A program made the translations under genes and the position numbers. A DNA stretch of 64,000 nucleotides, from contig NC_057752.1 of NCBI RefSeq assembly GCF_004010195.1, positions 8,425,180 to 8,489,179 of the forward strand, given 5' to 3'. Origin of the DNA: Chiloscyllium plagiosum (Eukaryota). Below the pieces are notes generated by a model. The model was not told where the DNA came from. It made no database searches and saw nothing but the letters and a program-made list of their open reading frames with translations. Of this stretch, positions 549 to 63,234 are shown in pieces (positions within the stretch are counted from its first letter, which is position 1; every line of letters starts with the position of its first letter).

Positions 549-777
549 TGAAATAACTGCACAGAAGCCAGTATCCCATCACCAAGCCATCTTTATTTAC
601 ACATGCACAGTACATCGACTCTGACCAGCTTGCGCGGAGCCAGTCCCTAGAGTGAACAGAACCCCAACACTCCTGTTTATATCTGTCAGCCAGAGCTCCC
701 TGATTGACCAGGTCAACAGCCTCAATCAAGGATCTCATAGTCAGTGAGATCCAGCTGGTCCTGCTCCAATCACTACA
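549..777 (-). mobile_element. Solo LTR (229 bp) with 5-bp TSD GAAGA
   Basis: Minus strand TGTAGTG...TATTTCA termini; TATA-like GATATAAACAGG (668-683) and AATAAA; GAAGA at 544-548 and 778-782. Confidence 0.85.
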
Positions 778-6170: not shown

Positions 6171-6316
6171 AACGTGGAGGGGCAAGGGGGGTGAGAGTGA
6201 TGCTGGGGGTACTGACTCTGTGCTGGCTGGGCCACAGTCGATGTGTTACTGTTGGTTTCTGCTTTTTTTTTGGGGGGGGGGTGCGGAACCTGATTCCTGA
6301 ACTGGTTGAATTATTT

Positions 6317-6506
6317 TATTTTATTTTATTAAACAAATTACATAACAGTTTACAAAAAACGTTGACAGCTGTACACAAAAGACAGCAGTTTTACAAAGGA
6401 GAGGAGCAGCAAAGCTAGGCCCCGAACGCTACCGTTCAACCATTTTACAGGGAGAGGAGGACAAACCTCAAATCCCAGTTCCACATGTGACAAGACAGTG
6501 ACAATG
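6317..6506 (-). mobile_element. 5'-truncated antisense copy of the composite retroposon 3' end, 16-bp TSD
   Basis: Reverse complement matches about 8225-8413; (AAAAT)n tail; ACTGGTTGAATTATTT at 6301-6316 and 6507-6522. Confidence 0.85.
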
Positions 6507-8020
6507 ACTGGTTGAATTATTTAGTCAGTTTATTAACTGGTACTCATTTAGTGAGGACTGATTGTTAAACTCCTGATGCACACAATGTGTTTCAGGTGTA
6601 ACTCAGTTCTCTCAGTTCTCATTAGGGGACTGTTGTTTCACTGGCTGGTTACAGCCTGTGTGTTACTCTTTTCTCTTTCACTTTTAAGAAAAGGACAAAT
6701 GTTAATTTTAATGGCAGGGCTTAGCCCTTGGACTCTAGTTTTCTTTCGTACGTGTCTTCACTGTTTTTGGTGTTTGGACTGAGCTTTTGTGGAAGACATA
6801 CATTTTACCAGATGAGCTGTTCCTGTGGGGAGGCCTAGCCCTGGGACTCGGCCTCTAAAGATTGAACATCTGTATGTGTGCTGGGAGGTGAGCAGTTGCT
6901 GTATCCTGGAGTTTGGGATAAGAGCTTTCCTTCAGCCAAACCCCTGTGAGTTAACTGCACCTTTACAATATATTGTGTTCCTGTCAGTGGACCTGGTTCT
7001 CCAAGGATGGGACAGGACTCCATGGAGCTTGAATACCTGTGTGCTGTGGGGTGTGCATTTGCTGCCTTCAGGAGTGGACTCTGCCCTTGGTTGTGGACTC
7101 TGCCCTTGGTTGTGGACTCTGCCCTTGGTTGTGGACTCCATTTCTGACAATGCACATTGTATACTGGAGTGGACTCTGTTCCTGGGAATGGACTCTACAT
7201 TTTGAAGAGAACTGTCTATGCTAATGGACTCTATGTACCAGAAAGGACTCTGTTTGTTGATGATTATCTGTCATGTGGTTTGTTGGGGTTATCACCTGTA
7301 CTGTCTTGTGTGTCCCTGGGTCTAGTAGGCCGTAATGTGAGCTGGGAGGCTCATGGGTCGTCCTGAAAGCTGTCACCCTGATAGCCAGACGGTGAGTAGG
7401 CCATTCTGTGAACCTGAAGGTTGGTAGGCTATCCTGAAAGCTGGAGGGTGGGTAGGCCGCCCTAAGAGCCAGAAGGTGGGTAGGCTGCTCTGAGCGCTGT
7501 CGTCCCGAGAAGGGGTGATTGGGATGGGCTGTCCTAGAGGTGGTCGAAAAGTGTCAGAGCAGCCGAGAGCCAGAAGGCGTGTAGGGGCAGGCTGAGATCC
7601 GGAAGGCTTGTGGGCTACCCTGCACGTTGTCGTCCCTGGGGAAGGGGACGGGCTGTCCTAGAGGTGGCCGGAAGGTGTGTCAGGGCAGTTCACAGGCCGG
7701 ATGGTGCATCTGGGTGGGTGAGAGCCCAATGGTATGTAGGGGCAGATCGAGAGCCGGAAGGCGAGTAGGCCGTCCTCAGCGTTGTCACCCCGGGCAGATA
7801 CCGGGGCGGGCTGTCCTAGAGTTGGTCGAAAGGTGTGTCGGGGCGGACCGAGAACCGGAAGGGTCATTGGGTGGACCGAGAGCCGGAAGGCGCATAGGGG
7901 CGGGCTGCCTTAGAGTGGCTGGAAGGTGGGAGGGATGGAGGGTGGGGGAGCTTGCTGGGTTTCTAGGGGTCTGTATTATATGCACTGTTTCTTATGTAAT
8001 TAGACTGTCTTGTATGTACA

Positions 8021-8208
8021 TTGCTGGAAAAGAGCAGCAGGTCAGGCAGCATCCAAGGAGCAGGAGAATCGACGTTTCGAGCCTGAAAAAGGGCTTATGC
8101 CCGAAACGCTGATTCTCCTGCTCCTTGGATGCTGCCTGACCTGCTGTGCTTTTCCAGCAACACACACTTTTCAGCTCTGATCTCCAGCATCTGCAGTCTT
8201 CACTTTCT
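8021..8208 (+). mobile_element. Fold-back Penelope pLTR insertion, 13-bp TSD
   Basis: Inverted arms of about 55 bp; TCTTGTATGTACA at 8008-8020 and 8209-8221. Confidence 0.8.
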
Positions 8209-8421
8209 TCTTGTATGTACAAATGTCATTGTTACTGTTTGTAATGGTTGAAACAGATTTGAGGTTAGTCCTCATTTCCCTGTAAACTGGCTGAACAGCG
8301 GGGTTTGGGGCCTGTCTTTGCTGCTCCTCTTCCTTGTAAAATTGTTGTTTCCCTGTATACAGCTGTTAATGTTAACTGTTTTTTGTAAACTGTGAATTGT
8401 TTAATAAAATAAATCAGGAGA

Positions 8422-8477
8422 TAAAATAAGCACTACCACAGTTAGGCAGTAGCGTAGGGAATAGAAAATAACAAATA
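8422..8477 (+). mobile_element. Extreme 3' tail of a Tx1-clade element
   Basis: aaataagcactaccacagttaggcagtagcgtaggg matches the Tx1 tails at about 60385-60430 and 60764-60835. Confidence 0.65.
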
Positions 8478-10683
8478 TATATAACCATGAGATTTAGAAT
8501 CTCCTCAGTTTAGGGGACTGAGTGTGTTACTGCTGCTGTTGGTTTCTTTTTTTTTGGGGGGGAAAACCTAATTCCTAAACTGGCTGATCTATACAGCCAG
8601 TTTGTTACCTGGCATTCCTTTTCTATTGAGGACTGATTTTTAAACTGGCTGATTTAAACAGTCAATGTGTTTCCAGTGTAATTCAGCCTTCATTAGGGAA
8701 CTGTTGTTTCACTGGCTGGTTACAGCCTGTATGTTACTCTTTTTTTTTCTTTGAGAAAAGGACTAAGTTGATTTTTGTAGCAGGGCTCAGACCTTGCACT
8801 CTGGTTTTCTTTGTTTTTTTTAATGTATTTTCACTTTTTTGGTGTTTGGACTGAGCTCTTGTGAGAAAATACATCTTTCCATATAAGTGGTTCCTGTGGG
8901 TAGGCCTGGCCCTTTGTTGGTGACTATGCCTCTCTCAAGACTGAACACCTGTGTGTGTGTGTGTGCTGGGAGGTGAGCAATTGCTGTGTCCTGGAGTGGA
9001 CTTTGCCTTTGGGAGTGAACTAAACCAGTGAGTTAACTGCATCTTTACAATGTACTGTATTCCTGTGAGTGGACCTGGTTCTCTATGGATGAGCAAGGAC
9101 TCTATGGAAACTGAACACCTGTGGGGTGTGCATTTGCTGCCTTCAGGAGTGGACTCTGCCCTGGGTTGTGGACTGTTTTTTGGCAACGGACTCTGTAGTT
9201 TGGAGTGGACCCCGTTTCTAACAATGCACTTTGTATACTGGAATGGACTTTACCATAAACAGTTCTCTTCAAAATGTAATGAACTCTGTACCAGGAAGGA
9301 CTGTTTGTTTGTTGATAATTGACTCTGCCATGTTGCTTGTTGGGTTTATCACCTCCACTGTCTTGTGTCCCTGGGTCTGACAGGCCTTCGTGTGAGCTGG
9401 GAGGCTAATAGGTCATACTGAAAGCGGTCACCCTGTCATCCTGGGGGGGTGGGGAAACAGGACGGGCTGTCCTAGAGGTGGCTGGCAGGTGTCAGGGTGG
9501 ACCAAGAGCCGGAAGGGACTTGGGGCAGACCGAGAGCTGGAAGGGGCATGGGGCAGGCTGCTTTAAAGTGGCCAGAAGGTAGGAGGGACAAGTGGGTTGC
9601 TGGGGGAGTCTGTATTCTATACACTGTTTTTGTTATGTAATTGGACTGTCTTATATGTATTTGTTACTAGTTTGTAATGACTGAAGTGGAATTTGAGGTT
9701 TGTCCTCCTTTCCTGAAAACTGGTTGAATGGTGGGGTTTGGAGCCTTGCTTTGCCGCTTCTCTCCCTTGTAAATTTGCTGTTCCTCTGTACAGAGGAACC
9801 TTGATTATCCAAGTATCGAATTATCTGAAGGCGATCTCGAGGTCCCAATAGAAACATTACATCAAAGACATGTTTCCAACACTGATCGCGTCTTTTGTTT
9901 AGTGATTAAAAGTGAACTCCGCTTACTGAAATGTTGCCGAGAACAGTCCTGGACATCGATGGGAGCCCAGACACCATCTCCAAATGACTGACCTCCCGCG
10001 CTCTCACTCACTCTCTCGGCCCACATACATTCCCTGGAGTTCTACACAGGGGTGTACCCTAAACCCCCCTTCCCCAGATAATCTCTCAACACTGTCCTGT
10101 ACAGGGTAAAGGTGAAACCTGTCAAAAGGTTGCAGTAAAAAGTTGTGTGTGGGGCTGTGTGCGTGCCATTTGGACACTCACCCAACCCCAAAACAAAGGC
10201 AGCAGCAGCCTTGTTGGTGTCCAGAGAGGGGGTAGGGGCGAGCATAGGGGGCAGTGTTGGATGGGGTTGGGGAGGCAGTGATGAAAGGGGCTGGGGGCAG
10301 ACCCTGTTGGGCAGGAGGGGTGGGTGAGGGGGGTGATATTGGACAGGGTTGAGGTGGGGGCAGGTGGTTGTGGATGACTGGGTGGTGTTGGAGGAAGGAC
10401 AGGGGCAAGGATGGGGCAGATGGCGGGCAGTGTTGGGTGGGGTTGAGGAGCGTGCAGGCAGGGTCGGGGTCTCGCGTGCAGTGTGCTGCTGCCTCATGTG
10501 CTGGACGGGGAGCGGACTTAACAGAAAACTCCGAGCCCCAGAGGAAAGGCATTGAATCAATTAATTGAATAATCAATTATCCAAATGAAATAGTGCCCGC
10601 CCATCACATTTGGATAATCCAGGTTCCTCTGTATACAGTTGTTAATGTTAACTGTATTGTTTAATGAAATGTTTTAAAAAAAA
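8478..10683 (+). mobile_element. Composite retroposon unit 2 (shortened VNTR block, interrupted by a MITE)
   Basis: Colinear similarity to units 1 and 3; ends in a poly(A) run joined to ACAGGAGA. Confidence 0.7.
9791..10631. mobile_element. Non-autonomous Tc1/mariner (pogo/Tigger-like) element
   Basis: TIRs CAGAGGAACCT(T/G)GATTATCCAA (21/22 match); TA TSD at 9789-9790 and 10632-10633. Confidence 0.85.
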
Positions 10684-12550
10684 AAACAGGAGATTTAAAA
10701 TCCCCTCAGTTTAGGGGACTCGCTCTGTGCTGGCTGGGCCACAGTTCGTGTATTACTTCTGCCATTGGTGCTTTTTTTCATGCAAATGTTTTTTTTGCAC
10801 CATAAGCAAGGTACAATCGATGTTGTGAATTGATGTTAATGCAGATAGGACTTGAACCTGTGACTCCCAGTCCAGGAGTAGGGTCACTACCAGTGTTCCA
10901 CAAGAGGGCCCTACTGCTGCTGATGGTTTACTGCTTTTCTCGTTGGGTAGATCCTGATTCCTGAACTGGCTGATTTACAAGGCCTGATTTGTTAATTGAT
11001 ATTCTTTCTTTTATTGAGGACTGATTTTTAAACTCTCTGATCTACACAGTCAATGTGTTTCAGGTGTAACGGTTCTCATTAGGGAACTGTTGTTTCACTG
11101 GCTGGTTACAACCTGTTAGTCCTTTTCTCAAAGGACAAGAGAAAAAAAGTATGTTGATTTTTGTGGCAGGGCTTAGCCCTTGCACTTTGGTTTTCTTTGT
11201 TTTCCTTTTTTGGTGTTTGGACTGAGCTCTTGTGAGAAAATACATCTTTCCAGATGAGCTGTTCCTGTGGGTAGGCCTGGCCCTTTGTGGGTGACTAGGC
11301 CTCTGTAAAGACTGAACACCTGTGTGTGCTGGGAGATGAGCAATTGTTGCATCCTGGAGTGGACCAAACCCCTGCAAGTTAACTGCCCCTTTACAATGTA
11401 CTGTGTTCCTGTGAGTTGGCCTGGTTCTCTATGGATAAACCAGGCCTCTATGGAGACTGAACACCGTGTGTGTTCTATAGGGTGTGTATTCACTGCCTTC
11501 AGGAGTGGACTCTGCTTACTGGTGTGGACTTTGCCTTCGGTTGTGTACTTTATGTACTCTGACAATGCACTCTGCCTACTGGAGTGGACTCTGTTCCTGG
11601 GAATGGCCTCTACATTCTGAAGAGAACTGTTTATAGTAATGAACTCTGTACCAGAAAGGACTCTGTTTGTTTATTGGTAATTGATTCTGTCTTAGTGCAG
11701 GTGATAACCCCAACAAGCAACGCCTTGTGTCTCCCTGGGTCTTGCAGGCCTTACTGTGAGCTGGGAGGCTCATAAGTTGCCCTGAAAGCTGTCCCCCTGA
11801 GAGTCGGAGGGTGGGTAGGCTGTCCTGTGAACCTGAAGATGGGTAGGTTGTCCCAAAAGCAAGAAGGTGGGATGGCCACTCCGATGCCAGTTGCCCCGAG
11901 AGCCAGAAGGTGGGTAGGCTGTTCTGAGCGCTGTCGTCCCGAGAAGGGGTGATTGGGATGGGCTGTCCTAGAGGTGGTCGGAAGGTGTGTCAGAGCAGCC
12001 GAGAGCCAGAAGGTGCGTAGGGGCAGGCCGAGATCCGGAAGGCTTGTGGGCTGCCCTGCACGCTGTCATCCCTGGGGAAGGGGACGGGCTGTCCTAGAGG
12101 TGGCCAAAAAGTGTGTCCGGGCAGTCTACAGGCCGGATGGCCCGACGATACGTAGGGGCAGATCGAGAGCCAGAGGTCGGTAGACTGTCCTCAGTGCTGT
12201 AACCCCAGGCAGGTACCAGGGCGGGCTGTCCTAGAGGTGGCCGGAAGATGTCAGGGCAGGCTGAGTGCTGGAAGAGGCCTAAGGGCAGGCTGCCTTTGAG
12301 CGACCAGAAGGTGGGAGGGTCGGGTGGTTTGCTGAGTTGCCAAGGGCGTCTGACATATGCACTGTTTTATTGTTCGGTTTATCGAACTGTCTGTATGTGA
12401 TTGTGTTGATCCTTTTTTTTCTTTTTTTTTCCTTCTCGTCCCAGATTCCCTGTGAACTGATTTGTACAGTGGAGTTTGGGGGTCTGGTTTTATCACCCCT
12501 TTTTTCCCTGTAAATTGCTGTTTATTGTATACAGCTGTTAATGTTAACTG
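10684..12550 (+). mobile_element. Composite retroposon unit 3
   Basis: Starts aaacaggagatttaaaatcccctcagtttaggggact; its 3' end is fused to the LTR-terminus-like GGAGTTATTTCA (12552-12563). Confidence 0.7.
10770..10911 (-). mobile_element. Short tRNA-derived SINE inside unit 3
   Basis: Minus-strand B-box-like GGTTCAAGTCC, A-rich tail and degenerate ~16-bp TSD. Confidence 0.55.
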
Positions 12551-12895
12551 TGGAGTTATTTCACAGGGAAATGCCTACATTTCGAAGCTACGTGTGTCTG
12601 TTTTTATGTCCTATAATAAGTCAAAATATACCTGTTTCCTCCCATAGATAATTTGTCATAATGCTGAAAAGCATATTCTATCTTACTACAAATTTCTAAT
12701 TCCTTTTTGTTTTCCTGAGGAAAGGGTATTGCAATAAAATTTTGTTCACATTCAGCTGGACAGTGTGCCTTTCTTAATTCATACTAGACACAAATCTGCA
12801 ACACTAGTGAGGTTTTTATAGTTTCTAATTGGTGAAAGTTGAGGATAATATAGACATCAGAGGATTAGAAGGCTTAAGACTCTGACCACAAGGCA

Positions 12896-13004
12896 TGTCT
12901 GAAGAAGGGCATATGCCCGAAACGTTGAATCTTCTGTTCCCTAGATGCTGCCTGACCTGCTGTGCTGTTCCAGCAATAAAGTTTCAGCTTTGATCTCCAG
13001 CGTC
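12896..13004 (+). mobile_element. Penelope pLTR fragment with a hammerhead core, flanked by a 39-bp direct repeat
   Basis: CTGAAGA-A-GGGCATATGCCC-GAAACGTT; identical 39-mers at 12857-12895 and 13005-13043. Confidence 0.8.
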
Positions 13005-56667: not shown

Positions 56668-57119
56668 CTGGTAGAAAGGAAATAATTCACTTTAAATAAA
56701 ACATTTCCACTAATTCATTGCCTATTTAGTACTTATTTATTTCATACTACAAGCAATTTATAACAACTCAAACAGATATGATTAAATTGTTTCACAAAAC
56801 GTTTGTTTCAAATCCAACCCAATATCGACAGCTTGATAATACTCCACATCAGAAACTTAATATTGCCAACTTCAACGGCTCTCAATGCGACAAACTTAAA
56901 AGGGAACTTAGACCTCAAATAAAATTGGACATTTGTTGAAATTAGATTAATGTTGCTAAAGTGAGCAGAAATGATGAAAATAATGCTGAATATCTAGAGC
57001 AAGTAAGTCAGCAGAGTTCTAATGAACAGCCCCAACTATTATTAATATACTGCCAGTATATTAAATCAATATGTTGGTTTCCAGTTTTCAAAAGGCAATG
57101 TTTGAAGACCATACTTTGT

Positions 57120-58912
57120 ATTTTTTTAATTCATTTGTGGGATGTGGATGTCACTGGCTGGGCCAGCTTTTATTGCCCATCCCTAGTTGCCCTTGAGAAG
57201 GTGGTGGTGAGCTGTCGTCTTAAACCGCTGCAGTCCACCCATTGTGGATTGACACTCAATGCCATTAGGGAGAGAATTCCAGGATTTTGGCTCAGTGACA
57301 GTGAAGAAACGGTGATATATTTCCAAGTCAGGATGGTGAGTGGTGTTCCAAAGTAACTGCTGACTTTGTCCTTCTAGATGGAAATGATCATGGGCTTGGA
57401 AAGTGCTGTCTAAGGATCTTTGATAAATTTCTGCAGCATATCTTGTAGATGGTACACATTGCTGCTACTGGGTGTCGGTGGTAGAGGGTGTAAATGTTTG
57501 TGGATGCGATGTCAATCAAGTGGGCTGTTTTTTTTCTGGATGGTGTCAAGCTTCTTGAGTACTGTTGGAGCTGCACTCATCCAGGCAAGTGGGGATTATT
57601 CCATCACACTCCTGACTTCTGCTTTGTAGATGGTGGACAGGCTTTGGGGAGTCAGGAGGTGAGTTACCTACTGCAGTATTCCAAGTCTCTGACTTGTTAT
57701 TGTAGCTACTGTGTTTATGTGGCAAATCCATTTGAATTTCTAATCAATGGTAACCCTAAGGATGTTGAGAGTGGGGGATTCAGTGATGGTTACATCATTA
57801 AATATCAAAGGATGGTGGTAAGATTGTCTCTTGTTGAAGACGGTCATTACATTGTATTTGTGTGGCATGAATGTTAATTGCCACTTATCAGCCCAACACT
57901 GGATATTGTTGCATTTCAACATGGACACTTCAGTGTTTGAGCAGTCATGAATGGTGCTGAACAATGTGCAGTCATCAAAGAACATCCCCATGTCTGAGCT
58001 GATGATGGAGGGAAGGTCATTGATGAAGCAGTTGAAGATGGTTGGGCCAAGGACACTGCCCTGAAGAACTCCTGCAGAGATATCCTGGAGCTGAGGTGAC
58101 TGACCTCCAACAAACATAACCATATTCCCATGTGCCAGGTATGGCTCCAATCAGTGGAGAGTTGGCCTCCTGATACCTGCTGATTCCAGTTTTGTTAGGG
58201 TTTCTTGATGCCACACTCAGTCAAATGCAGCCTTGATGTCAAGGGCTGTCACTCTCCCCTCCCCTCTGGAATTCAGCTTTTTTGTCCATGTTTGAACCAA
58301 GGCTGTAATGAGTCAGGATCTGAGTGGCCCTGGCAGAACCCAAACTGGGCATCACTGAGCAGGTCATGTCTTTGCAAATGCTGCTTGATAGCAATGATGA
58401 TGACACCTTCCATCACTTTACTAATGATCGAGAGTAGACTGATGGGTCAGTAATTCGTTGGATTGGATATGTCCTGCTTTTTATGCATAGGACATACTTG
58501 GGCAATTTTCCACATTGTTGGATAGATGATAGTGTTGTAACTGTACTGGAACAGCTTGGCTAGGGGAGTGGCAAGTTCTGGAGCACAGGTCTTCAGTACT
58601 ATTGCTGGAATGTTGTCAAGGCCCGTAGCATTTGCATCATCCAGTGCCTCGAACCATTTCTTAATTTCATGCGGAGTGAATAAAATTAGCTGAAAACTGG
58701 TATCTGTAATGTTGAGGACGACTGGAGGAGGCTCAGATGGATCATCCACTGGGCACTTTTGGCTGAAGATTGCTGCTAATGCTTCATGACCTTTTGCACT
58801 CCTGTGTTGGGCTCTTCCATCATTGAGGATGGGGATATTTGTGGAGCCTCCTATTCCAGTGAGGTGTTTAATTGTCCATTCATGACTGGATGTGGCAAGA
58901 CTGCAGAGCTTA
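57120..58912 (-). mobile_element. CR1/L2-group LINE RT region
   Basis: GLDNIPAIVLKTCAPEL, WKIAQVCP.HKK, GVLQGSVLGPTIFNCFINDL, FFDDCT motifs. Confidence 0.8.
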
Positions 58913-60310
58913 GACCATAAGATATAGGAGCAGTAGTTAGGCCATTCAGTCCATCGAGTCTGCACTGCCATTCAATCATAGGTGATAAGTTTCTCAATTC
59001 CATTCTCCCACTTTCTCCCTGTAACCTTTGATCCCCCTGATACTCAAGAACCTATTGATCTCAGTCTTAAATATACACAATGACCTGGCCTCCACAGCCT
59101 TATATGGTAATGAATTCCATAGATTCACCACTCTCTGGTTGAAGAAGTTTCTCCTTGTCTCCATTCTGAAAGGTCTTCCCTTTACTCTGACGCTGTGCCC
59201 TTGGGTCCTAGTCTCTCCTACCAATGGAAACATCTTCCCAACATCCACTCTGTCCAGGCCATTCAGTATTTTTTATGTTTCAATTAGAACCCCCCTGATC
59301 CTTCTAAACTTCATCGAGTATAGACCCAGAGTCCTCAAACGTTCCCCATATGTTAAGCTTCGTATTCCTGGGACCATTCTCATGAACCTCCTCTGAACAA
59401 ACTCCATGGCCAGTACATCCTTCCTGAGATATGAGGCCCCAAACTGTACATAGAACTCCAAATGTAGTCTGACCAGATCCTTATAGAGCCTCAGAAAGAC
59501 ATCCCTGCTTTTATATTCAAGTACTCTCAAAACAAATGCCATCATTGCATTTGCCTTCCTAAATACTGACTCAACCTGCACGTTTACCTTGGTAGAATCC
59601 TGGACTAGAACTTCCAAGTCTCTTTGCACTTCAGATATCTTAATTTTCTCCCCATTTAGAAAGTAGTCCATGCCTCTATTCTTCCTACCGAAGTGCATGA
59701 CCTCACACGTTCCCATTTTGTACTCTGTCACTTCTTTGCCAACTCTCCTAACCTGTCCAAGTCTTTCTGCAGCCTCCCTGCCTCCTCAATACTAACTGTC
59801 CCTTGACCTATGTTTGTATTGTCTGCAAACTTAGCCAGAATGCCCTCAGTTCCTTCATCTGGATCATTAATGTTTAAAGTGAAAAGTTGTAGTCCCAACA
59901 CTGAGCCTTGCGGTACACTACTTGTCACCGGCTGCCATCCTGAGAAGGACCCTTTTATCCCCACTCTCTGCTTTCTGCCAGACTGCCATGCTTCTATCCA
60001 TACCAGCAGCTTGCCTCTAACACCATGGCCCTTTACCTTACTCAATAGCCTCCTGTGCGACGCTTTGTCAAAGACCTTCTTGAAGTCCAGGTAGATAACA
60101 TCCATTGGCTCTCCTTACTCGTTACTCCATTGCTCGTTACTGCTTAAAATAGTTCTAGCAGATTTGTCAGGCATGACCTCTCCTTGATGAAACCATGCTG
60201 ACTTTGCCCTAGTTTATCATACACTTCCAAGTATTCAGAAATCTCATCTTTCACAATGGATTCCAGGATCTTACCCACGACCAAGTTTAAGCTAATCAGT
60301 CTGAAATTTA
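58913..60310 (-). mobile_element. CR1 LINE 3' half
   Basis: [22 protein letters not shown] and AKFADNT motifs. Confidence 0.88.
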
Positions 60311-61535
60311 TATACCTGTTGTCTTTCACTGTGTCTCACACCTGCACACACACCTGCACACACACATCATGGGTGCTGAGGAAAATATAAGCATTACCGC
60401 AGTAAGGCGGTAGTGTGGGGTAAAAAAAATACAAACAGGGGATTATGTTCGGGCCCGGTATCCCTGGAGAAGGAGCATGCGGTGTCTACCAACACTCTCG
60501 AGGTGTTCAGGGAGAGGTGGGTACCACAGGAAGTGGAGTGTCTTATTTCCCCCGCGACTCTATTTTGATTTAATCCCTACCCTGCCCCCTTCACTTTTTT
60601 TTAACATTTAGGCATTGCCCTTTGTTGAGAAGGGTTCTGCTTGTCACTGGCCACTCGGATGTTTCTTTTCTTCCTGGTGGTGGAATATGAATAAAGTTTT
60701 CTGCACTCGTTGTTTCTTCACTGTGTCCTACACCTACACGCACATGAAATGGGTGCTGGGCTAAATAAGCACTGCCGCTGTTAGGCGGTTAGGCGTTAGT
60801 GTGAGGATTTATATTAAAAGAACAGAAAAAAAACATACACAGAGGATCCTCAGTTCTGGTGACTGACACAGAGTTGGCTGGCCACTCAGCCAGTGTATTG
60901 TGGGGCAAAAGCAAGAAAAAAATAATAAATATATATAAACAGGGGACCCTTTTTGGTTTTCTTAAGGATCTTCTTTTCTGGTTTTGGTTGCACTTCAGCC
61001 CTATGCTCCTGATCATTGGGCACCCAGTGCAGAGGGGAGAGGGCAGGTCAGAGGATCAGTGGGTCTGCTCCTGGGCCTGACCAGGCTGGCCATTAACAGG
61101 TCTAGGCAGCAGGCCGTTGAGGAGGTCATTACAGCCGACTCCCTTCCCCTCTTCTGTGGTTATGGTCGGGCCTGGGGGTATTGGGTGCTGGGTTAAGAAT
61201 TCAGTGTTTTGCATTGTTGTATGCTGTTTTCGGCTACACTGAGTTGTGTTGTCTGTTTTCTCCTGTGCCTGGGTGTGGGTGATGTATGAAGTGTTTGAAA
61301 TTGTCCACTGTGGGCTTTTGCCTGCTGTAAACTTTGCGCTTAGGCACTGAAACGGACTTTTTTATGGACTTTGATCATTGTGGTACCTTTTAAAAAGACA
61401 GTAACCTGTGTAAAAACTCCACGTTTTACGTAGCGTGTTTGTTCTGTGAGATTTAGGGTATCTTATGGTCACGTCCCTACTTCTCTTGTGAATTATAATT
61501 GTTGTTGTATTATGTATAGCTTTGATTAAGAAAAG
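60311..61535 (+). mobile_element. Head-to-tail stack of 5'-truncated Tx1-clade non-LTR retrotransposon fragments
   Basis: ORF2 C-terminal peptides DYVRARVSLEKEHAVSTNTLEVFRERW (about 60441-60530, one frameshift) and FLKDLLFWFWLHFSPMLLIIGHPV..GRSED..VGLLLGLTRLAINRSRQ (60946-61176); repeated 3' tails. Confidence 0.8.
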
Positions 61536-61669
61536 TACAAATGGAGGATTTCAAATCTCCTCAGTCCAGGGGACTGACTCTGAGCTGGCTGGGCCACAGC
61601 CAGTGTACAGTGCACATGTAAATAAAGGGTGACTTGGTGACGGATACTGGCCTCTCTGCAGTTATTTCA
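61536..61669 (+). mobile_element. 3' half (TATA to terminus) of an LTR related to the solo LTR at 549-777
   Basis: gggactgactctg..gtgta..tgtaaataaag..cttggtga.ggatactggc..ct.tgcagttatttca aligns with the reverse complement of 549-683. Confidence 0.8.
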
Positions 61670-62734: not shown

Positions 62735-63234
62735 NNNNNNNNNNNNNNNNNNNNNNNNNNNNNNNNNNNNNNNNNNNNNNNNNNNNNNNNNNNNNNNNNN
62801 NNNNNNNNNNNNNNNNNNNNNNNNNNNNNNNNNNNNNNNNNNNNNNNNNNNNNNNNNNNNNNNNNNNNNNNNNNNNNNNNNNNNNNNNNNNNNNNNNNNN
62901 NNNNNNNNNNNNNNNNNNNNNNNNNNNNNNNNNNNNNNNNNNNNNNNNNNNNNNNNNNNNNNNNNNNNNNNNNNNNNNNNNNNNNNNNNNNNNNNNNNNN
63001 NNNNNNNNNNNNNNNNNNNNNNNNNNNNNNNNNNNNNNNNNNNNNNNNNNNNNNNNNNNNNNNNNNNNNNNNNNNNNNNNNNNNNNNNNNNNNNNNNNNN
63101 NNNNNNNNNNNNNNNNNNNNNNNNNNNNNNNNNNNNNNNNNNNNNNNNNNNNNNNNNNNNNNNNNNNNNNNNNNNNNNNNNNNNNNNNNNNNNNNNNNNN
63201 NNNNNNNNNNNNNNNNNNNNNNNNNNNNNNNNNN
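62735..63234. other. Assembly gap (500 N)
   Basis: Run of N. Confidence 1.

Follow-up and report, generated by a model that had tools for sequence, protein, structure and literature searches.

A high-copy LINE of the Tx1 clade in the genome of Chiloscyllium plagiosum very probably targets one site in the LTR of an old, Ty3/Gypsy-like retrotransposon family, always inserting in the same orientation, and its homing to this site builds stacks of copies. One mobile element systematically splits the LTR of another at a TATA-like box, which would explain common, dense repeat stacks that confuse the annotation of this genome. The window analyzed here is the whole stretch of 64,000 nucleotides from contig NC_057752.1 (positions 8,425,180 to 8,489,179 of the forward strand), and the stack under study occupies positions 60311-61669 of it. 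An earlier sequence-only reading of the window had proposed that Tx1-clade elements insert repeatedly at the TATA box of an LTR family; what it had observed was confirmed, and its interpretation was supported.

Structure of the stack at 60311-61669

The stack was resolved into ten consecutive parts, all on the plus strand.

60311..60420, + strand: Tx1 copy 1, 5'-truncated, the final ~110 nt of the 3' UTR with the tail ..GGCGGTAGTGTGGGG
60421..60429, + strand: A-run of Tx1 copy 1
60430..60445, + strand: duplicated copy of the LTR target, TAC-AAACAGGGGATTA, its 13-mer 2 mismatches off a natural empty site
60446..60806, + strand: Tx1 copy 2, 5'-truncated, with the ORF2 end, 3' UTR, and tail
60807..60846, + strand: A-rich linker, then a degenerate target copy, TACACAGAGGA
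60847..60903, + strand: 57-nt fragment resembling the LTR just 3' of the target (subfamily A), by eye against 61549-61607
60904..60946, + strand: A-rich run (60904-60933), then a target copy, TATAAACAGGGGA
60947..61535, + strand: copy of a second Tx1 subfamily, with the ORF2 C-terminus at 60947-61179 and a different 3' UTR ending GATTAAGAAAAG
61536..61548, + strand: target site where the stack meets the LTR, TACAAATGGAGGA
61549..61669, + strand: 3' half of the host LTR (subfamily A), ending ..GTTATTTCA

The four variants of one motif given in the sequence-only reading were found exactly at 60430-60442, 60836-60846, 60934-60946, and 61536-61548, each 3' of an A-rich run. The accompanying count of four A-rich 3' tails was slightly generous: runs 1 and 2 close Tx1 tails (..GGCGGTAGTGTGGGG) and run 4 closes the 3' UTR of the second subfamily, whereas run 3 (60904-60933) is preceded by the 57-nt fragment, which is LTR-R-like, and has no recognizable Tx1 3' end. 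One 3' UTR ending ..GGCGGTAGTGTGGGG is common to 60311-60420 and to part of 60446-60806, both of which are 5'-truncated, and copy 2 (60446-60806) showed 77% identity to positions 8353-8734 of the reverse complement of locus L066. The last motif passes, as had been described, into an LTR 3' half that can be aligned with the solo LTR at 549-777 (61570-61669 against 647-549, 79.2% over 101 nt), and 61555-61669 was 85% identical to the LTR copy of locus L070. The 5' half of this host LTR, which had been reported as not visible at the locus, was searched for near the stack and through the window and was absent. A different repeat with minus-strand ORFs (57100-60310) borders the stack on its 5' side, at 60311.

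The ORF2 end of the second subfamily (60947-61179) was 80% identical to a Tx1 copy of L066 (reverse complement, 8136-8372), and a search of the genome returned 48 candidates with 69-85% identity. Its 3' UTR had no match among the other retrieved loci. This subfamily is rarer and older and has an unrelated 3' UTR, yet it sits at the same LTR site in 60947-61535. If it generally uses that site, the protein, rather than the 3' UTR, would determine the specificity.

The inserted element

The tail of copy 1 used as a query gave at least 2118 first-look candidates in the genome, of which the best 40, which were scored, had E values of at most 4.5e-26, and the ORF2 C-terminus gave at least 15261 first-look candidates. 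The anatomy of the element was pieced together from two natural copies, L066 and L068. The former has an ORF1 with a weak CCHC knuckle (zf-CCHC, 19 bits, under the Pfam cut-off of 20.8) and the C-terminus of ORF2; the zf-RVT match at this C-terminus (25.3 bits) is likewise under its cut-off of 27.5. The latter has an APE-type endonuclease (Exo_endo_phos, 7.5e-12) and a reverse transcriptase (RVT_1, 1.9e-36) in Pfam, with one frameshift between them.

Among named proteins, the best match of an 882-residue reverse transcriptase piece was the Tx1 149-kDa protein of Xenopus laevis, YTX2_XENLA (53% identity, 91% query coverage, E 1.6e-258). The piece also matched proteins named 'YTX2' or 'transposon TX1' from fishes, turtles, and alligator, as well as a fragment from a stingray (68%). 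The endonuclease aligned with that of Tx1L from the first residue, with 145 identities in 327 positions (44%). Judged from its best named matches, the inserted element belongs to the Tx1 clade of LINEs, here in a cartilaginous-fish genome, which agrees with the clade named in the sequence-only reading. Long 'open frames' in L065, L066, and L067 were rejected as full-length Tx1, being mostly runs of N. Such runs lie in or beside Tx1 copies at L065 4784-6753, L066 3555-5227 and 7127-7232, and L068 1-1363, and others lie by Tx1 copies at L108 7255-7501 and at 62735-63234 of the window.

The target LTR

An uninterrupted copy of the target repeat is present near the start of the window.

549..777, - strand: uninterrupted solo LTR, subfamily B, TGTAG..TTTCA

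This copy runs from TGTAG through GACAGATATAAACAGGAGTGT and AAATAAAG to TTATTTCA, contains the empty target GATATAAACAGGAGTGT at about 664-680 (plus-strand coordinates), and has a 5-bp duplication on both sides (544-548 and 778-782). A genome search with it gave 6381 first-look candidates, and all of the best 40, which were scored, were uninterrupted across the site. Nineteen genome copies retrieved with their flanks were combined with the window copy into a set of 20, every one of which begins with TG and ends with CA. The 5-bp flanks were identical in 5 of these copies and agreed at four of five positions in another 5, compared with 0/200 and 5/200 in shifted controls. Two LTR copies without a flanking duplication share upstream sequence that closes with a stretch of purines (..GGAGGCAGGGA / ..GGGGAGGGA), which is located 5' of the 3' LTR in L083 and L087.

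The interior of the host element was represented by a single locus, L108, obtained by extending one of these two copies. In it, an LTR 3' half on the 5' side and an intact 3' LTR enclose an interior of 5.9 kb, which contains decayed pieces of a reverse transcriptase and, after them, an integrase piece. No primer-binding site was recognizable 3' of the 5' LTR of this locus. Pfam gave nothing beyond a sub-threshold GIY-YIG match for eight natural ORF pieces of the interior, and a word-indexed homology search with the interior pieces gave no match; the classification therefore rests on leads from the protein Atlas and on the architecture of relatives found by HMMER. The Atlas clusters for these pieces pointed to RVT_1 (0.96) and rve (0.92), and a full HMMER search with the reverse transcriptase piece found 1572 relatives at E <= 1e-10. 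RVT_1 and RT_RNaseH(_2) were present in all eight of the long relatives that were scanned, Integrase_H2C2 and rve in seven (the exception being P0126), and a gag-type aspartyl protease in three. We take this domain layout to be of the Ty3/Gypsy type. The TG..CA ends, the 5-bp duplication, and a reverse transcriptase followed by an integrase identify the host repeat as an LTR retrotransposon, and the architecture of its relatives suggests an old, Ty3/Gypsy-like family.

The claim that an LTR promoter is the target stands in that the repeat is the true LTR of an element with this gene order. Its other part, a working promoter, is suggested by the layout of the LTR: within its ~230 nt, the TATA-like box occupies approximately 97-104 and AAATAAAG is found near 180, an arrangement in which the box may serve transcription of the host element.

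Insertion junctions and target-site duplication

GATAT-AAACAGGAG(TGTC/ATTC) was found in all 20 uninterrupted LTR copies, as 13 distinct 13-mers of two flavors (..GAGTGTC and ..GAGATTC). The target can be written ..GACAGATAT / AAACAGGAG(TGTC or ATTC) / .. and is located at the TATA-like box, ~100 nt into the ~230-bp LTR.

LTR target site sequence: GACAGATATAAACAGGAGTGTC

As these copies are free of Tx1, the motif is LTR sequence, which bears out its earlier identification with the TATA region of the LTR.

Both junctions of one insertion were complete in L066, where the LTR 5' half ..GATATAAACCAGAGTGTC is joined to a truncated Tx1 on the 5' side, and the Tx1 tail, A-run, ATAAACCAGAGTGTCAGAG.., and LTR 3' half to GTTATTTCA follow on the 3' side. 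For a survey of 5' junctions, matches to a U3 anchor (n = 36) were collected in loci picked by Tx1 similarity only. At 13 of the anchors, the Tx1 interior begins 11-14 nt past TAT, and at least 9 different Tx1 truncation points were counted by eye among these junctions. The remaining anchors comprised one that led into a non-autonomous unit, the intact LTR of the window, and 21 without anything, which were mostly chance 12-mers. The order at the 3' junctions is Tx1 tail, A-rich run, (T/AT)AAACAGGAG.., and LTR 3' half. The 5' junctions keep one position in the LTR while the LINE side varies, as is characteristic of target-primed insertion with truncation of the 5' end. Because the motif belongs to the LTR and is present at both junctions, about 13 nt, sometimes more, are duplicated on insertion, and the site is regenerated on both sides.

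These junctions bear on the alternative that AAACAGGAG comes from the 3' end of the element itself, as a copy of its RNA, with unrelated sequence after it, an outcome that the sequence-only reading had itself named as contrary to its proposal. The position of the motif 3' of the A-run in 61 of 99 tails and the many different sequences that follow it in stacks would fit such an origin. However, the motif is present in 20/20 LTR copies free of Tx1 and is joined to the LTR 5' half at the 13 Tx1 5' junctions, and the 'different sequences' are LTR 3' halves or 5'-truncated Tx1 copies. We give this alternative almost no credence.

The 13-mer is directly preceded by T at 29 of the 61 on-target 3' junctions, which suggests that the first nick may sometimes fall slightly deeper in the TATA-like box. 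At two further loci (L003, ~1625-1680; L004, ~1610-1680), LTR sequence of about 18 and 33 nt, respectively, is duplicated on either side of A-runs that lack Tx1, as judged by eye. These A-runs resemble insertions of which just the poly(A) tail is left, with longer target duplications, and stretches of this length suggest that the second cut can fall further downstream.

Frequency of the site and of stacks

Tail matches were collected and their downstream flanks were compared. In 30 loci found by the tail alone and thus blind to the flank (one of which stops at a contig edge), 17 had the site, for which the 90 nt 3' of the tail had to contain a 13-mer differing from a natural empty site at no more than 2 positions. 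Random windows drawn from the same DNA passed this test in 89 of 2000 cases (4.5%), and the other A-runs of the window in 1 of 37; this sole positive belongs to a stack formed at 10684 by a related non-autonomous element. Over all non-redundant sampled DNA, which amounted to about 340 kb of best-scoring matches and was not a random draw, 61 of 99 A-tailed copies had the site, and a looser test found it for 68 of 120 tails versus about 10%. Among the 38 of 99 tails without the site within 2 mismatches, some sites are decayed or shortened, and roughly 14 tails look, by eye, truly off-target or later interrupted. Column counts showed that the conservation of the tail flanks is gone from position 13 on, and that its conserved part is the G-rich CAGGAG(T/A)(G/T)T, beyond the A/T portion.

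An enzyme with the generic preference of L1 for TT/AAAA-type sites could also, without true specificity, have met a common A/T-rich spot of a very common LTR. In favor of this, TAT/AAA, the proposed nick site, is similar to the L1 consensus that PMC1950540 cites, and the 6381 first-look candidates attest to the abundance of the LTR. A preference for A/T alone, however, does not account for the G-rich conserved flank, for one 13-mer family at 57-62% of tails compared with 4.5% of random repeat-rich windows, or for the fixed position of the 5' junction, and this explanation is very improbable.

Stacks were common among the flank-blind loci, with at least two same-strand tails within about 3 kb at 16 of 30 loci and at least three at 11 of 30, in agreement with the earlier proposal that stacking results from repeated insertion. 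It could be argued that the stacks arose mainly by tandem duplication or unequal crossing-over of one insertion. Repeated blocks or identical truncation points do occur in some of them (copies 1 and 3 of L066; L012, L023, and L046), which indicates that duplication also adds to stacks beside repeated homing. Against duplication as the main source, the window stack combines members of unequal length (110, ~360, and ~590 nt) from two subfamilies, and stack members across loci mostly have different truncation points. Duplication is accordingly an improbable main source of the stacks, and repeated homing is preferred.

In L066 (minus strand), copies 1 and 3 (oriented positions 2456-2669 and 8745-9060) share one 5' truncation point, are truncated directly after the duplicated site, and have a near-full-length copy between them. 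This arrangement could reflect a target duplication of great length, local duplication of sequence, or misassembly beside the run of N.

Proposed insertion mechanism

The junctions are consistent with the following course of insertion. The element would encode an ORF1 protein with a zinc knuckle (a weak match) and an ORF2 protein with an APE-type endonuclease, a reverse transcriptase, and a C-terminal zinc finger (a sub-threshold match). The endonuclease would nick the bottom strand in or next to ATAT/AAAC, reverse transcription would be primed on the poly(A) tail, and the top strand would be cut about 13 nt downstream. The recognized sequence probably lies within the duplication, in which case each insertion would leave two usable sites, and further insertions into either copy would produce head-to-tail stacks such as that at 60311-61669. 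Non-autonomous elements with the same tail would use the same LTR site. From the sequences of these junctions, we infer the specificity of the enzyme, the order of the nicks, and the choice of the duplicate that is re-used.

Non-autonomous elements with a Tx1-like tail

The window contains a head-to-tail array of about three non-coding units of ~2.2 kb at 6200-12900. The units are unrelated to Tx1 save for a Tx1-like 3' tail (8420-8460), and each starts with ~60 nt matching the LTR (subfamily A) immediately 3' of the Tx1 target. Second and third instances of the target in the window are found in this array.

8420..8520, + strand: Tx1-like tail of a unit, A-rich run, target AACCATGAGATT, and the LTR-A-like head of the next unit
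10670..10752, + strand: A-run, ACAGGAGATTT, and the LTR-A-like head of the next non-autonomous unit

In L108, non-autonomous units entered the upstream LTR at the same target site, and a 5'-truncated copy of the unit in this locus has part of the head away from the target, which argues that the LTR-like head belongs to the unit. Tx1 probably has a non-autonomous partner in this ~2.2-kb unit, whose head would derive from the target.

Comparison with known target-specific LINEs

Sequence-specific Tx1 LINEs, including some that target LTR elements, are already known, and the present element is a well-resolved further example with a Gypsy-like LTR target; the known working of Tx1 elements is unchanged by it. 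A defined 13-nt target with mapped junctions extends the small set of sequence-specific endonucleases among APE-type LINEs, and site-specific enzymes of this type are of interest for understanding, and possibly re-using, RNA-mediated insertion. Kojima regards a LINE as target-specific when one sequence type occurs in >20% of its flanks (PMC4494074); the present site occurred after 17 of 30 flank-blind tails and 61 of 99 tails overall, together with a fixed 5' junction (n = 13).

Tx1L of Xenopus laevis, of the same clade (53% identity in ORF2 and 44% in the endonuclease), also homes to one site inside another mobile element with an endonuclease that is sequence-specific in vitro (PMC1950540, PMC4494074), where it nicks almost exclusively at its expected site (PMC1950540). 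Its target, in contrast, is Tx1D, a non-autonomous piggyBac-type DNA transposon and not an LTR, and the sequence of the site is different. Transposons are likewise the targets of Tx1-Mar (Mariner-N4_AMi) and Tx1-9_AMi (Harbinger elements), which are described with Tx1L in PMC4494074. Closest in target type are the crocodilian Tx1-8_Crp and Tx1-4_AMi, which are aimed at LTR retrotransposons (Kojima 2015, PMC4494074); they differ in their hosts and are grouped with Keno and Tx1-Mar, and they are compared here from the main text of that paper, without their position in the LTR element or stacking. Keno, Mutsu, Dewa, Kibi, and Koshi are target-specific Tx1-clade families as well (Kojima and Fujiwara 2004, cited in PMC4494074), but their targets are multicopy RNA genes or microsatellites and not the promoter of a transposon (PMC4494074). 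No account of a cartilaginous-fish Tx1 or of an LTR-TATA target was found in the literature searched, with Repbase Reports outside its scope.

The crocodilian Tx1-Mar and SINEU resemble the present system in that one target inside a transposon is used both by an autonomous Tx1 and by non-autonomous partners and the 5' heads come from other sequences (PMC4494074), as in the ~2.2-kb unit with its LTR-derived head. Their target is Mariner-N4_AMi and their heads come from U1/U2 snRNA (PMC4494074), whereas the head here is the LTR just 3' of the target; an LTR-derived head would nevertheless parallel those snRNA heads.

Possible capture of the LTR promoter

The site may be more than a safe haven and may have been chosen for the promoter, as insertion ~13 nt past the TATA-like box would leave the entire U3 promoter immediately 5' of each inserted copy: the promoters of the Gypsy-like element would be hijacked for transcription of the LINE or its partners, and the LTR element would be decapitated. 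We consider this doubtful. Among 20 flanks upstream of the Tx1 ORF1, which stop short of the true 5' end, no LTR junction was found and a degenerate tandem-repeat 5' UTR was present instead, so these flanks give no support to promoter capture by the autonomous element. Capture is weakened for this element by the full-length copies with a long tandem-repeat 5' UTR of their own.

The array upstream of ORF1 is long and consists of degenerate tandem repeats of ~50-60 nt (L067 4895-6975; L088-L107), reminiscent of monomeric LINE promoters. ORF1 starts near position 1797 of L022, and the ORF1-proximal part of the repeats gave 374 first-look candidates. In the non-autonomous unit, the head is LTR sequence starting right after the target, which suggests master copies driven by an LTR promoter.
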